Assembly: GCA_963674825.1 (NCBI GenBank)
Contig: OY771587.1
Span: 1,664,001 to 1,728,000, forward strand
Origin: Candidatus Cloacimonadales bacterium
GTDB lineage: Bacteria; Cloacimonadota; Cloacimonadia; Cloacimonadales; JAIOQZ01
Direction of reading: 5' to 3'
DNA length: 64,000 bases
Below, piece after piece: positions 47,925 through 54,085 of this stretch. The notes beneath the pieces were generated by a model that was not told the DNA's origin, did no database searches, and saw only the letters and a list, made by a program, of their open reading frames with translations. Position 1 is the first letter of the stretch. Each line of letters opens with the position of its first letter. A program made the translations under genes and the position numbers.

Positions 47925-50900
47925 CTATAACTTCTTTTCGATCAGGTAATTCAATACAGACGAGATTGCCTTGGACATCTCGGCAGACAGCCCATCCATT
48001 TCCTTCAGGATCGCTTTGCACTTCTTGATATCGGCAAGATTCAGTGTCAACGGGTCCAGCGAATACTGATTCACGAAGAACAGGAGGAAGTAGCGCGCAC
48101 GTTCGAAATCGATGAGACGTATCAGGATCGGCAGGCAACTGCTGCAACGCTTGTGGAACATTGAGTAGATCATCAGATCGACGAGATTGCGGTAATCGGT
48201 TGTGGCAACGATCTGCTCAAATATCTTCAGCCATTTTGGATCGTTCGACTTGACTGATGCGAACACGATAGCGCGAATGATGTCCTCATCCTTGGACTTC
48301 AATGCCTGCTCAAGGATATCCCAATCGCTTTGAGTCATGTTGTCTTCGGTGCATTTCAGAATCGATTCGATAAGCTTTTCGCGTGAGACGAGCCTGTCTT
48401 TTTTTGCCTGCGTTTCGCCCTTGGCTTCCATGATCTTCTCAACATCCATGCTACCTATCAGCTTTTCGGAGAGCTGCATATCCAGATCGTTTCGCTTGTC
48501 TTCCAGTTCATCCTCGTTCATGATGATCTTTTCGGAGAAATCACGCAATGGAATGGTTTCAAAGCGTTCGTATGGATCAGCAAAGTGATGCAGGGTCTTT
48601 TTATACCAGTTTTCGGAGAGACGCCAGTCCGTGGTTTCAAAGAGCGATCTGAACAACTCATAAGAATCGACAGGTTGAAGCTCAATGCCCTTATTAACCT
48701 TCTGAAGCGCGATGTCGGCAGAGACTCGTACGTATTCATCGCCATCTTTGGAGATTACCTGAAGCATGCGCAGCGATTCGTCGGAGTATATGTCGCCGAG
48801 TGCCTTGGAGAGGGCAATCTTGGTTTTGGATGAGGAGCTCATAACATATTTCTGGAGGATGGGAATGCTTTCACGGAGTTGCATGGTCCCAATCGCCTTG
48901 ATTACTTCCGATTGGATCGATTCGTTCGGATTCGCGAGTTGCTTCTCCAGCATCTTCAGCGCTTTTGTGCTTTTTACACGTGCGATTGCCTGAATGGGCG
49001 CTTTCATGGCGTGGGCTTTCGTCTCTTCCATCAGTTCGGCGAACATATCCCAGCCCGATTCGTCACCCTGCATGATCAGTGCATAGGCAAATTCTGACTT
49101 GATCTCAGGTGTGAGTGTAGCTTTGTTGCGATGAATGAATTCGATGATCCGGGCATGGCGAAGCTTGCCCAATACTCTTGCGATCGGGACTTTGGAGACC
49201 CAGTCCGCTTTGCGCCAGAGCATATTGATAAGCTGTAATGCCCGTTCGATGCTGTAATCAGAGAGCAGGCTCAAGAGGTCGTCCAGGATATCCAGGTCCT
49301 GTAAAAGAGCGATTTTACGGACAACGGCGAGACCAAGTTCGCTGGGATATACTTTGAGCGCATCAATAATTCTTTTATGGGCATATTGATCGAGGTTGAG
49401 TATCTCGCTTTCGATTTTCTGCAGGAAATTCATCCTTCCATTTTGAGCGAAGACCAGCGCTGCGATGGTTTTGCAGGCATAATCGTCACTCTTGTATAGC
49501 TCGTTCATGTATTTAGTGATGTTGCTGGATGGGATATGAGCAAGCAACTGCGCGAGCATGAATTTCATCTCGGCGTTACCGGTCTTGAGTAAGCGCTCGA
49601 CCGTTTCCCAGCCTTCATCTTCGCTGTACTGGAGGAGCTTTCCGGTAGCCAGTGTGGCGATAATCGGTGTTTGATCGAAACTAAATTCCCGCAGAACGGA
49701 GAGGTTTTCGCCTGTGCTAAGCTGCAGGAAACATAAGCGTGCATAATCACGGACGTTGTTCTGGCTGAAATCGGTGTAGAACTCGAGGGTCTGCCAGCCG
49801 TTAGGATCTCCCATAAGGATCATGGATTTTGCAGATTCCACTTCGAGGATAGGTCTCCGTTCGGTGTTGAGGCTTTTCAGGAACGAAAGCGATAGTGGAT
49901 GATAAATACTTGGTAATGCACGAATCACAGCGAAATATTCTTCGGAACCGCCTTCGCGGAGCAGTTCGGCGAGTAGCGGGAGTACTTTTACTGTGTGCAA
50001 TTGGCTGAGGGCCTGAGCGATATAGGGGCGATTCTTGTAATAGGCTGCCGGGATCAGGCGCGCAAGATAGTCCACCGCGGTATCCAGCGGAAGCAGGGTG
50101 ATGGTCTTGATGGCTTCCTGGCATACTTCGAGGTTTTCGTCCTGTGCGAGCTTCATGATCAGGTCTTCATCGACATTCTCGGACATGATCTTGAGCGAGG
50201 TCGCGATCTGCTTACGAACCATATAATTGGATGACTGTGCGAGGTCGTTCAATAGTTTTCCGACCGTCTCATTTTCAAGATTCTTCAATGCGATCGCAGC
50301 GTTCACGGCGATGTTGTAGTCATCATCTTTCACGAATTCGAGCAGCATGTTCTCATACTGCTGAAGCTTGAGCATACCGATGAAGCGGCAGAGGCGAACT
50401 TTGCCGTTCATGGTCGCTACGGAACTGTATTTCTCCAGATTGGGCAGGTTTCTCAGGATAGCGTCATGGACGTCGGGATGCAGTTCGGTGCTGGAAGTTA
50501 GAGTCTCGAAATACATGTTGGATATGATGTTGAATTTATCATCCGAGATCAAGCCTTCTTTCTCGGCCATCTCGTTCTTGACGAGCTCTTCCATCTCCTT
50601 CTGCGTGTTGATTCGTCTCTTCAATTCGAGGTAGTTCTGCTCAATATCGAGTATTGTACGCTGTGGGTCGTTGACAACCCGGCGATTCATAAGCTTAGCG
50701 AAGAAGGCGAAGTTCTCCTCTCCGCCTACCAGCAGGAGTGGTTTGAGTAAATTGGAGATTGGGAACGAATCAAGATGCAGATTATCCAGGATTTCTTTCT
50801 GGATGGGCTTGCAACTTTCGATAAGCTTCTGCCGTATATTTTCCTGCGGGATAATTTCGTTGAGTCTGTAACCGTATTTCGATGTGAGGTAGTAGGAAAC

Positions 50901-51845
50901 ATTGATGCTGTTGAGGCTTGTTTTTTGTATGATTCCGATCGTGTTCAGGTAGCTTTCAAGCCACTGGAACTGGTCGTAATACTGATACAGGTATATCAGG
51001 TCGATAACAAAGTGGGTTTGCAGGAATGTCTTGATCCATTCGCTGATCGTGGTCATGGAGAAGAAAGATTTAAACGTCTCGAACGGAATTTCGTAGGAAT
51101 CGGTGATGAGCTGGAAGTTCTCTGGATAAAGCAGCTCATCTTTGTTGATGTCCTTGATCAGCTTGAGTTTGTCCTGAGAACTGAGTCGAGAGAGATTGAT
51201 CAGCGACAGAACAAAGGAGAGGTTGAAGCGCTTCTGGCTGGACCAGAATAGCATTTCCTGCTTGATGAGCTGATACTCTTCGATAGGTGTGATCGTTTTG
51301 CGGATACTGAGATAGTGCTTGAGTCGGTCCATTTCCGAGTACTGTTGTTCGATGGAAGATTCTTCACCACTTTCTTCAACGATCTGATCGACGTCCGCTT
51401 CTTCGAGGAGCATGCGGAGTTTGAGGTAATCCTCGCGGACTTTCTTAGGTGCATTGGGATTATCAGGATCGATACCAAGGCGTTTGAGGAGGTTGCGGCG
51501 GACGATGCGGTCGATCTTCGGCTTTTTAGCCAGCTTGATCAGGTCTTTTTCTTTGAAGTTGCGTACAAGATAGGGAATGATGGTTTTCTGGGCAAAGCTC
51601 AGGTTGACGAATGACATGATGTCCTGAAAATCTGTAAGCTCCAGCGCTGTTTTCTCCAGAAGGCTTTCAATGATCATGGCGCGATTTCCGGGATCTTTTT
51701 GAGCGAGCTTCAGCAGTACTTTGAATTCTTCCAGCTCGAACAGACGCTCGATGATCTGTTCCCGTAAGGGCTTGGAGGCAATATAGAGCTCTTCAAGTTT
51801 GGCGGGATCGTTTTTCGCCATCATCCATCGAAGATTGTTCAGCAT
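47925..51845 (-). CDS. Large HEAT-repeat protein (~1300 aa)
   Basis: Many D..VR..A..ALG-type helical repeats; GGGAG RBS before ATG 51845. Confidence 0.8.
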   Translation of the reverse strand: MLNNLRWMMAKNDPAKLEELYIASKPLREQIIERLFELEEFKVLLKLAQKDPGNRAMIIESLLEKTALELTDFQDIMSFVNLSFAQKTIIPYLVRNFKEKDLIKLAKKPKIDRIVRRNLLKRLGIDPDNPNAPKKVREDYLKLRMLLEEADVDQIVEESGEESSIEQQYSEMDRLKHYLSIRKTITPIEEYQLIKQEMLFWSSQKRFNLSFVLSLINLSRLSSQDKLKLIKDINKDELLYPENFQLITDSYEIPFETFKSFFSMTTISEWIKTFLQTHFVIDLIYLYQYYDQFQWLESYLNTIGIIQKTSLNSINVSYYLTSKYGYRLNEIIPQENIRQKLIESCKPIQKEILDNLHLDSFPISNLLKPLLLVGGEENFAFFAKLMNRRVVNDPQRTILDIEQNYLELKRRINTQKEMEELVKNEMAEKEGLISDDKFNIISNMYFETLTSSTELHPDVHDAILRNLPNLEKYSSVATMNGKVRLCRFIGMLKLQQYENMLLEFVKDDDYNIAVNAAIALKNLENETVGKLLNDLAQSSNYMVRKQIATSLKIMSENVDEDLIMKLAQDENLEVCQEAIKTITLLPLDTAVDYLARLIPAAYYKNRPYIAQALSQLHTVKVLPLLAELLREGGSEEYFAVIRALPSIYHPLSLSFLKSLNTERRPILEVESAKSMILMGDPNGWQTLEFYTDFSQNNVRDYARLCFLQLSTGENLSVLREFSFDQTPIIATLATGKLLQYSEDEGWETVERLLKTGNAEMKFMLAQLLAHIPSSNITKYMNELYKSDDYACKTIAALVFAQNGRMNFLQKIESEILNLDQYAHKRIIDALKVYPSELGLAVVRKIALLQDLDILDDLLSLLSDYSIERALQLINMLWRKADWVSKVPIARVLGKLRHARIIEFIHRNKATLTPEIKSEFAYALIMQGDESGWDMFAELMEETKAHAMKAPIQAIARVKSTKALKMLEKQLANPNESIQSEVIKAIGTMQLRESIPILQKYVMSSSSKTKIALSKALGDIYSDESLRMLQVISKDGDEYVRVSADIALQKVNKGIELQPVDSYELFRSLFETTDWRLSENWYKKTLHHFADPYERFETIPLRDFSEKIIMNEDELEDKRNDLDMQLSEKLIGSMDVEKIMEAKGETQAKKDRLVSREKLIESILKCTEDNMTQSDWDILEQALKSKDEDIIRAIVFASVKSNDPKWLKIFEQIVATTDYRNLVDLMIYSMFHKRCSSCLPILIRLIDFERARYFLLFFVNQYSLDPLTLNLADIKKCKAILKEMDGLSAEMSKAISSVLNYLIEKKL

Positions 51846-51926
51846 CGTATAGACTCCCAATTCTAAGGATTCATGTCATTTTCGACAGATAGCCATCAAT
51901 ATGTAAATAAATTATTTCCGTCAGGA

Positions 51927-52551: not shown

Positions 52552-52932
52552 CTATTCCCAATAAACAACTGAACTTGTGTCGGATTCCCAGACCTCTATA
52601 TCTGCGATCCGGCAATGATCGTGTTTGAGCTCTTCTTTAAGGCGATCGTAAAAATATTTTGCGATGTTCTCGGATGTCGGGTTACACTCCTTGAAAGCGG
52701 GGTGCTCGTTGAGCATGGTGTGGTCAAGCTCGCCGAGGATCGCGTTCAAGTGAAGCTTGATATCTTTAAAATCGATAGCAAGTCCGATCTCATCTGTTCG
52801 GTCGCATTCGATTCCAACTCGGATTTTCCAGTTATGTCCATGCAGCCGCTTGCAAGCTCCGTCGTATCCCTTCAGAAGATGCGCTCCGCTGAAATGAGAC
52901 GTCACATTTAATTTGTACATATTGTTCTCCAT
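52552..52932 (-). CDS. queD: 6-carboxy-5,6,7,8-tetrahydropterin synthase QueD
   Basis: FSGAH.L..Y.G.C..LHGHNW, IDF, LDH..LNE, NPTSENIA and VWES. Confidence 0.95.
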   Translation of the reverse strand: MENNMYKLNVTSHFSGAHLLKGYDGACKRLHGHNWKIRVGIECDRTDEIGLAIDFKDIKLHLNAILGELDHTMLNEHPAFKECNPTSENIAKYFYDRLKEELKHDHCRIADIEVWESDTSSVVYWE

Positions 52933-52980
52933 CTTGTTGATTTTATCTTAGATACACAGCTACACGATCCATACTTTCCC

Positions 52981-53264
52981 GTCAAACATATTTCCCACAT
53001 GATTTCGGGGAGCTCCGTTTCTCCCTCGTCCCGAATGGCGATCAAACTGTTGTCCGAAGTTACCCGAAGAGTGCCGGGGCGGCGTAGGAAGCTATTTCGT
53101 AGCACTGCAATGCTACGAAATGGCTTCCTGGGCAGTTCTGAATTCGAACTGCCCGTGTGCGAAGCACACACGCCGCCCCGACACGTGAGCAAGGTGAAGT
53201 CGTCGGTGGTCATTGTGGGATTCGGGACGAGGAATCGAGTGTGCGTGGCGTGAAAATGTTTGAC
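52981..53264. other. Nested palindromic element with a perfect four-way junction (unknown ncRNA or miniature mobile element)
   Basis: Stems 52981-89/53256-64, 53024-36/53220-32 and 53075-85/53170-80 enclose hairpins 53086-53129, 53130-53154 and 53155-53169. Confidence 0.7.
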
Positions 53265-53344
53265 AATATACCCGAGGTTTATGATTGACTACGCGAATGT
53301 AACCATATCGATCTTGAAGCGTTGAGGTTACAGTGGAGAAACTC

Positions 53345-54085
53345 ATGAAATGTAAGAATTGCTCTTCGTCGCTCGAACAAAACGCGATCTTCTGTCCCAG
53401 TTGTGGCTGGCAGACAGAATTCATCCGCGAGAACCTTTCGGCCAAGCTGGTTTTGAAAGGAGCCTGGCAGGACTATAAAGGTGTTCGGGGTAAGAATTAC
53501 CCATTTGCGATCTTCTTCGTACTGTTGATCATGGTTCCGGTTGGGCTCGCGGCCTTCTTCACACGAGACAATTACTGGATCAACAACCTCGCGATGCTGC
53601 TTTTAGCTCCGCTGGCGATGGTTCCGCTTACGTTCGAGGGTAGCCAGTACTCGGTGAAGCAATACTTTACGCAGCTGAAAAACTATCCTAAGCTCCTGGG
53701 AATCTCCTTCTTTACGGTGCTATTCTTCTTCGTTATCAACGTAATCTGCACCGGAAATCCGTTGTTCTACTATGCAACAGACCCGATTCTTCACCCGGTT
53801 CGATTTGTGTTGGTGCTTTACTGGCTGGCGATTATCGTTCCGTCGTTTTATATCCTCACAGAGCTGAAACTTCCGCCCTGCAAGTCAATCTACTGGGCCT
53901 ATAAATGGGGACGAGAAACGCGCTGGCAGCAATTCTTTCTGATCGTCGTGCTTGCTTTTTTAAATGTGATCGCTGTGATACCGGTTGGCCTTGGTCTGCT
54001 TGTAAGTGTACCGTTTACAGCTTTTGCCGTTCGTCGATTCTCCCGTCAGTTGCATCAGCATGGAATTTTTGAGCGGAAAGGTTGA
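53345..54085 (+). CDS. Membrane protein with N-terminal zinc ribbon
   Basis: MKCKNC...FCPSCG followed by about six hydrophobic segments; GGAG RBS. Confidence 0.82.
   Translation: MKCKNCSSSLEQNAIFCPSCGWQTEFIRENLSAKLVLKGAWQDYKGVRGKNYPFAIFFVLLIMVPVGLAAFFTRDNYWINNLAMLLLAPLAMVPLTFEGSQYSVKQYFTQLKNYPKLLGISFFTVLFFFVINVICTGNPLFYYATDPILHPVRFVLVLYWLAIIVPSFYILTELKLPPCKSIYWAYKWGRETRWQQFFLIVVLAFLNVIAVIPVGLGLLVSVPFTAFAVRRFSRQLHQHGIFERKG

Follow-up and report, generated by a model that had tools for sequence, protein, structure and literature searches.

An intergenic four-way-junction repeat of Candidatus Cloacimonadales and its dispersed relatives in a sister species

The systems with which the repeat described here was compared are the REPIN/BIME elements with their RAYT (TnpA-REP) enzymes, the MITEs, the bcr1 repeats of the Bacillus cereus group, integron attC sites, 6S RNA and the GCGNAGC mini-hairpins. 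TnpA-REP carries out cleavage and strand transfer. Integron attC sites contain R and L boxes and are used by the IntI integrase. 6S RNA binds the sigma-70 holoenzyme and templates pRNA.

As far as PMC13037366 describes the loops of mini-hairpins, only GNA among the 64 triloops yields the DNA mini-hairpin, with melting temperatures in the order A>G>C>T. The loops GAAT, GAAC and GATA are also given there as stable (67-71°C), and r(GCGAAAGC) is listed with 39°C compared to 76.5°C for its DNA counterpart. A search of the literature outside subscription papers and supplements revealed neither a three-arm junction repeat nor any repeats of Cloacimonadota. The repeat analysed here appears to be a new, branched variant of REP-like single-stranded DNA repeats, and an RNA gene is unsupported on present evidence.

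The copy between queD and the zinc-ribbon gene

The window, i.e., the whole stretch of 64,000 nucleotides that was analysed, belongs to a genome of 3.89 Mb (G000). It was compared with a sister species (G001), two further genomes of the same genus (G002 and G003) and two genomes of another genus (G004 and G007). A nested palindrome is located in the window between two divergent neighbouring genes. One is queD (52552..52932, minus strand; TIGR03367 over the cut-off), which lies outside the element, and the other encodes a zinc-ribbon membrane protein (53345..54085, plus strand; Pfam zinc-ribbon matches below the cut-off, without an NCBIfam match).

The initial annotation had treated 285 bp as a single nested element with an outer inverted repeat, an inner inverted repeat (13/13) and an 11/11 stem closing hairpins of 19, 9 and 6 bp without an unpaired junction base. 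All of these repeats were recovered at the positions claimed, and a fold parse verified the closed junction, with no unpaired base between the closing stem and the three hairpins. The family unit was found to comprise only the core of 114 bp (53071..53184), and the outer repeats are separate. The plus strand of the core was defined as the strand with the GNA loop, and all its parts are given on this strand. The closing stem P1 is formed by 53071..53085 (5' strand) and 53170..53184 (3' strand), is perfect over 11 bp from 53075 (53075-53085/53170-53180), and has seven inner columns that are near-invariant in the family. Arm 1 (53086..53129) is a hairpin of 19 pairs including one G-T, with the conserved base GGAAGC/GCTTCC. 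Arm 2 (53130..53154) is a hairpin of 9 pairs with copy-specific sequence, shortened relative to the usual ~20 bp of the family. Arm 3 (53155..53169) has a 6-bp stem and a GAA loop, in agreement with the GCGAAGC mini-hairpin noticed before; it represents a GCGNAGC DNA mini-hairpin and is the best-conserved arm. The adjacent positions 53185..53192 agree with a weak consensus (TGAGC/AGCAA words) that family copies share in their 3' flanks and that likely reflects a target preference outside the copied unit. With 44 nt, arm 1 of the window copy is longer than the short form of the family (16-32 nt) and shorter than the long one (64-100 nt); arms 1 and 2 (44 and 25 nt) compare to 100 and 61 nt in the G003 orthologue.

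A sequence-blind search for four-way junctions in the whole 3.89 Mb of G000 resulted in one match, the window copy. A relaxed search gave 49 matches, among which the window copy stood out with -0.75 kcal/mol per base; the remaining 48 all had values of -0.48 or higher. The window copy is the sole genuine four-way junction of G000, and no second copy was detected in this genome by blastn/nhmmer, patterns or the covariance model described below. One contig in each of the runs X1 and X2 covers the stretch without change, both from one sample that is maybe the source of the assembly, i.e., not independent; in run X3 the element had no coverage.

The outer inverted repeat has 9 bp (52981-52989/53256-53264). 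Its left half contains a host -35-like TTGACG upstream of queD (52980..52989, minus strand; hexamer 52980-52985), and its right half a host -35-like TTGACA upstream of the zinc-ribbon gene (53256..53265, plus strand; hexamer 53260-53265). Both outward-facing boxes had thus been read correctly. The proposal that the element supplies divergent promoters is not supported. The orthologous gap of G001 is empty of the element and has both hexamers, 7 bp apart; the gap of G002 has kept the 9-bp outer repeat around ~110 bp of other sequence without the core, and TTGACG is likewise present there. Furthermore, outward-facing TTGAC pairs were counted in 105 of the 250 divergent gaps of G000, and an extension by four more paired bases occurred in one of these 105. 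The hexamers are therefore regarded as parts of host promoters, which leaves the short extension as the one special feature. A sigma-70 scan of 52800-53500 yielded no full promoter.

Two further features were observed near this locus. Directly 5' of the ribosome-binding site of the zinc-ribbon gene, the inverted repeat TGTAACC/GGTTACA (53298-53332) is kept in G003, partly in G002 and with its left half in G001, and may be a leader hairpin or an operator. On the minus strand, downstream of yihA and queD, a gene for a HEAT-repeat protein of 1311 amino acids extends over 47925-51860.

The junction family and its insertion sites

A pattern made from arm 3 and the closing stem gave 49, 1, 1, 0 and 0 matches in G001, G002, G003, G004 and G007, respectively; the reversed pattern used as a control gave none. 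A covariance model was built from 24 short-form copies. It matched the window core at an E-value of 1.1e-10, a copy that is itself in the training set, as the one match in G000, and had 71 matches in G001 among 82 candidates scored. After removal of three opposite-strand duplicates, at least 68 distinct loci of G001 remained. With up to 82 candidates scored per genome, the model had no match in 38 of 41 genomes, among them G003, the long copy of which was missed. The union of methods placed 53 copies in 2.4 Mb of G001 (63% of the genome), and in the same 2.4 Mb all 38 matches of the sequence-blind junction search belonged to the family. The blastn check for further copies suggested in the initial annotation was negative in G000; the family is dispersed in G001 (~70 copies) and present singly in G002 and G003.

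The pattern was present in 4 of 232 genomes of the phylum, all from the same genus, and in none of the other 228. In the genome collection, 36 of 38 pattern matches were in Candidatus Cloacimonadales records, and the other two were unlike the family. There were no pattern matches in viral contigs or phages, two in the plasmid collection, both due to chance, and 52 in metagenomes, of which eight had a chance stem of 7-9 bp and none had the family fold. By these sequence-based tests, which look-alikes of other sequence would escape, the family is restricted to the genus.

Each of the 67 copies that were parsed is predicted to fold into three arms, no more and no fewer, enclosed by a GC-rich stem, with 0-4 bases left unpaired at the junction; an earlier parse had found the three-arm fold in 49 of 50 copies, two copies without a 5' half in range being left out. 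P1 mostly measures 14-16 bp. The base of arm 1 is conserved, and the arm occurs in two length classes of 16-32 nt or 64-100 nt (mostly 84-91); about one third of the long inserts are unstructured, and their length is nonetheless kept. Arm 2 usually has ~20 bp, with a pairwise identity of 0.32 compared to 0.26 after shuffling (43 copies). The covariation check proposed at the outset was positive, with two-sided changes at 19 of 32 consensus pairs in the 24 short-form copies. The idea that the arms hold captured spacers or guides was rejected: arm inserts matched genomes no better than shuffled sequences, and flanks were unlike the copies' own arms. At ~100,965 of contig C2 of G001, an armless copy was noticed in which the closing stem and family-type flanks are left and the three arms are gone.

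Of the 49 pattern copies in G001, 45 were placed in called intergenic gaps. The limits of the unit were examined by comparing cores with flanks. Cores of 82-92% identity occur in unrelated flanks, once across species. In the eight closest pairs, the 28-nt flanks were 39-68% identical (mean 52%), compared to 49-50% for all pairs and 46% for shuffled flanks. The flanks share only a weak consensus, and similarity of flanks was weakly correlated with that of cores (r 0.13; 0 of 2000 permutations). Between the G002 core and one of the G001 cores, identity is 91% over precisely the stretch bounded by P1. The genes beside the G002 copy match G000 and G003 but find no DNA counterpart in G001, and this suggests that the core was transferred between species on its own. 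Orthologous sites with the element in one species and without it in another occurred in both directions. The check for empty sites was thereby answered positively, the window site in G001 and G002 being without core. The check for target duplications was negative: direct repeats of 5-9 nt between the flanks of 66 copies were no commoner than in permuted flanks (7-mers 7/66 compared to 12.4). A scan of G000 for empty-target motifs showed no excess at any spacing. Very young copies were not seen; the only two copies of near identity stem from the duplication of a segment that adjoins an ISL3 element. No clean empty/filled pair of high identity occurred among the sites compared, and the exact ends of the element are therefore inferred.

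Other features of G001 were recorded along the way. Gene order of contig C2 is strongly shuffled relative to G000: about half of the gaps >60 bp keep both neighbours, at a median protein identity of 75%. A second intergenic repeat family, rod-shaped and with fixed ends, has 45-46 copies in positions 1-2.4 Mb of this contig and 11 by pattern in G000, and is biased with respect to replication (34/45 in G001). A circle-junction link between the two families was rejected: end A of the rod repeat weakly resembles the 3' flanks of the junction repeats (p 1e-5), and end B is absent from the 5' flanks (p 0.67). A non-coding tandem array with a period of ~61 bp (G001:C2:2317641-2318594) could be a CRISPR array.

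Candidate mode of movement and rival explanations

The core is probably a non-autonomous element which is recognised as folded single-stranded DNA and moved in trans, as judged from the comparisons of cores, flanks and loops. The single strand would fold into the four-way junction, and an enzyme would recognise the shape and copy it to new intergenic sites. The strand with the GNA loop would serve as the working strand while the DNA is transiently single-stranded. P1, the base of arm 1 and arm 3 may be the contact surfaces, and arms 1 and 2 would need only length and pairing. The enzyme would act in trans and would most plausibly be an HUH/Y1 nuclease of the RAYT-like type, possibly lost since. 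Template switching of a polymerase between arms would flip loops, copy changes across stems and sometimes write extra outer stems such as the 13-bp inner repeat. Loop inversions are visible directly within close copy pairs, an outcome that the account of template switching in PMC5941160 would predict for inverted arms. At the window locus, the copy would have entered between two existing promoters before the split of G000 and G003 and would have lost arm length later. It probably only spaces the promoters apart, and its effect at the locus itself is likely small.

The nature of the folded strand was assessed from loops and mismatches. In 66 copies, three mis-parsed loops being reassigned by hand, the arm-3 loop was GNA in 47 (GAA 22, GGA 17, GCA 5, GTA 3); the others were the reverse complement TNC (4), four-base loops (GAAT, GAAC, GATA and GGTA, 4) and other sequences (11). 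The order A>G>C>T of these frequencies is the published order of DNA mini-hairpin stability. Triloops of arms 1 and 2 had no polarity (GNA 9, TNC 8, other 16), so the strand polarity is specific to arm 3. Among interior mismatches there was no G-T excess, with G-T:A-C ratios of 3:7 in arm 2, 2:2 in arm 1 and 7:5 in P1. Two signs were contrary. Of 25 G-T cases, three are isolated and interior, and the other 22 lie at the base of arm 2, where G-T is frequent, or are not isolated. In addition, when RNA pairing rules are applied, the plus strand has a slight advantage in the pairing of the outer flanks (42/66). Taken together, loop and mismatch patterns point to single-stranded DNA and not to RNA. 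Of the suggestion of a MITE or an ssDNA-folding element, the folding mobile element is supported in substance for the 114-bp core only; the strict MITE label is not supported.

Candidate enzymes were searched for in G001, without a match to Y1, IS110 or TnpB. A separate search recovered tyrosine recombinases. Searches for IS91-type enzymes and single-subunit (T7-like) polymerases were blank, as were their controls. Among 38 G001 proteins or pieces that were scanned, 36 of which came from 97 without a fast-blast match in G000 (63% of G001), there was no candidate enzyme. The missing enzyme weighs against the mobile-element reading, as do the lack of very young copies, the lack of a clean empty/filled pair and the weak correlation of flanks with cores. 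The three Y1 genes of G000 are flanked by other repeats, and no such junction was found at the Y1 loci L095-L124. G001, although devoid of Y1 matches, still contains four GTAG REP words of the type seen in G000, and loss of a RAYT-like gene is therefore possible. The ends of two multi-copy IS (63% of G001) and of seven long repeats (G000) were unlike P1. Two candidates were rejected. The sole reverse transcriptase (RT) region of G001 is interrupted by a stop and has no junction copy beside it. The RAYT-like gene beside a xer-like recombinase gene carries its own GTAG repeats. With respect to the former, the RT frame at L225:1141-2700 is broken by one TGA, is followed by a gene for 217 amino acids and has a defence-type look. 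The latter, a Y1 gene with GTAG REP hairpins downstream of the xer-like gene (G000:C1:316400-317100; L101, L227), is also found in G003; this site lacks it in G002, and in G001 a junction copy takes its place. For the question of what moves structure-conserved intergenic repeats without a partner transposase, this family offers an unusually sharp handle. Its defined unit, proposed working strand and invariant surfaces (inner P1, base of arm 1, arm 3) allow the design of a pull-down bait, and its four congeneric genomes range from 1 to ~70 copies. If this reading is true, a shape-reading transposition or recombination activity on single-stranded DNA would be new biology and possibly a tool.

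A bolder proposal is unlikely but worth stating. The family could be an undescribed class of mobile DNA, a Holliday-junction mimic made of a single strand that closes into a perfect four-way junction and bears one GNA mini-hairpin, which is read by its shape and moved between sites and species without target duplication or known transposase, possibly by junction-processing or recombination enzymes of the host; copies would then become joints for genome rearrangement.

Quite unlikely is the explanation that copies spread once and have since been retained by the host for a role as structural signals, e.g., as cruciform or RNA scaffolds for HU or junction-binding proteins, or as transcript-stabilising hairpins in convergent gaps. 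In the eight closest pairs, stems were 90% and loops 63% identical. The window copy and its G003 orthologue differ by about six compensated pairs, three of them in arm 2, with none broken in the shared stems. The better conservation of stems and the long-paired copy of G000 and G003 also fit selection for a host function, and this weakens the reading as a mobile element. Template switching, however, can create compensated pairs without selection, as far as PMC5941160 treats it. Convergent gaps were favoured by the copies of G001 (19/45 compared to 99/611 control gaps, p 7e-5); orientation to neighbouring genes, on the other hand, was mixed. A REP-derived RNA is reported to arrange the nucleoid of E. 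coli (PMC4550694). Against a host signal stands the distribution, with a copy number of 1 in three species, ~70 in one and zero in the 228 other genomes of the phylum.

A non-coding RNA gene, i.e., a branched 6S-like rod transcribed over the whole 285 nt, is improbable. The fold itself is very stable: for the stretch of 296 nt, none of 200 shuffles reached the RNA fold of the plus strand (z -8.81) or of the minus strand (z -10.69), and none reached the DNA fold (z -10.12 / -9.42 for the two strands). The Rfam check, with 6S first, gave no match, the best being tfoR with 32 bits at a cut-off of 70; 6S is located elsewhere in G000, where it exceeds the Rfam cut-off (56.8 bits). The 6S-like RNA suggested initially is also at odds with a multi-copy, mobile family with DNA-like loops and mismatches, with the missing core at the window site in G001 and G002, and with the absence of a G-U bias and of an inward promoter or terminator. 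The outer parts speak for both sides. The inner inverted repeat, a copy-specific outer stem of 13/13 bp on the plus strand (53024-53036, partner 53220-53232), is replaced in G003 by an unrelated stem of 15 bp at the same place, so that G003 also has a long rod of different sequence at the window site. Outer stems of at least 12 bp occurred in 5 of 67 family copies compared to 0 of 300 non-cognate pairs; yet across the family, a flank showed no preference for pairing with its own partner (942 of 2000 permutations were as good). The 13-bp repeat is likely a secondary growth beside a strong hairpin; alternatively, an RNA rod at the window locus would be under selection. If the mobile single-stranded DNA element is the right explanation, a striking candidate for a non-coding RNA is instead a selfish folded-DNA repeat, and the locus is a warning for covariation-based RNA discovery, since strong two-sided covariation accompanies DNA-type loops here.

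Just as improbable is a function of the folded strand as an attC-like recombination site, with copies acting as joints that shuffle gene blocks. Synteny with G000 was kept in 9 of 35 element-bearing gaps of G001 compared to 45-54% of control gaps (p 0.001-0.03), but p rose to 0.05-0.17 once gaps were stratified by gene orientation. The G002 copy lies between genes that are far apart in G000 and G003, whereas the window copy occupies a fully syntenic site. Shape is kept and sequence is free, as in attC sites; however, cassette arrays are absent, the genes next to the copies are unrelated host genes, and recombination between copies would carry flanks along, which was not seen. It is hardly credible that the repeat is a signal for priming (a primase site) or a single-strand promoter (an N4-type hairpin) that serves replication restart or mobile DNA. 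GNA mini-hairpins do occur in the G4 origin, RSF1010 ssiA and N4 promoters (within the account of PMC13037366), but G001 copies lacked the replication-strand bias (27/53) that the rod-shaped family has in the same DNA, and matches in viral, phage and plasmid collections were absent or due to chance.

Comparison with known systems

Like 6S RNA (RF00013), the window copy, and only this copy, forms a long rod with internal bubbles; different from 6S RNA, it has no model match, canonical 6S lies elsewhere, and the rod is conserved neither across the family nor across the genus. Integron attC sites differ in that they occur as one site per cassette in same-strand arrays, whereas junction copies are dispersed in mixed orientation with host genes on both sides. 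Arm 3 has the motif of the mini-hairpins of the G4 origin, RSF1010 ssiA and the N4 promoters; the middle base of its loop is free, and its loop frequencies follow the stabilities reported in PMC13037366. The junction family is chromosomal and dispersed instead, and is absent from the phage and plasmid collections searched. The ssi/pas signals have a fixed strand relative to replication and reside on plasmids and phages, neither of which applies to the junction family.

The bcr1 repeats resemble the family in size (~110-190 bp), in a branched or cruciform fold with compensatory changes and in non-conserved genomic positions. They have two inner stem-loops, 5-bp direct repeats and transcription, as far as PMC3184786 characterises them, whereas the junction family has three arms, a DNA-type loop, no direct repeats, and ends unlike the resident IS ends examined. 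MITEs have terminal inverted repeats around a non-coding core, comparable to P1 with 14-16 bp in most copies; in the strict sense, by the description in PMC3184786, they differ from the junction family, which has no target-site duplication.

The REPIN/BIME and RAYT system is alike in being extragenic, multi-copy and lineage-restricted, without target duplication and with a predicted single-stranded DNA fold (as outlined in PMC3116915 and PMC6006769). REPINs also have conserved inverted ends, and length and pairing of their spacer matter more than its sequence, with compensatory changes, in the account of PMC3116915. The REP or REPIN unit is a hairpin of 21-65 nt or an inverted doublet forming one hairpin in these descriptions, whereas the interior of the junction family was branched into three arms in 67 of 67 copies. 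The GT[AG]G tetranucleotide that PMC6006769 places 5' of the hairpin foot of REPs is not conserved: GTAG or GTGG stood at the junction of P1 and arm 1 in 14 of 52 copies by hand count, base-paired and co-varying, and none was conserved outside P1. No RAYT gene is flanked by the junction repeat, and none was found in the high-copy genome G001. The junction family works like REPIN, but belongs neither to the REPs nor to the MITEs.
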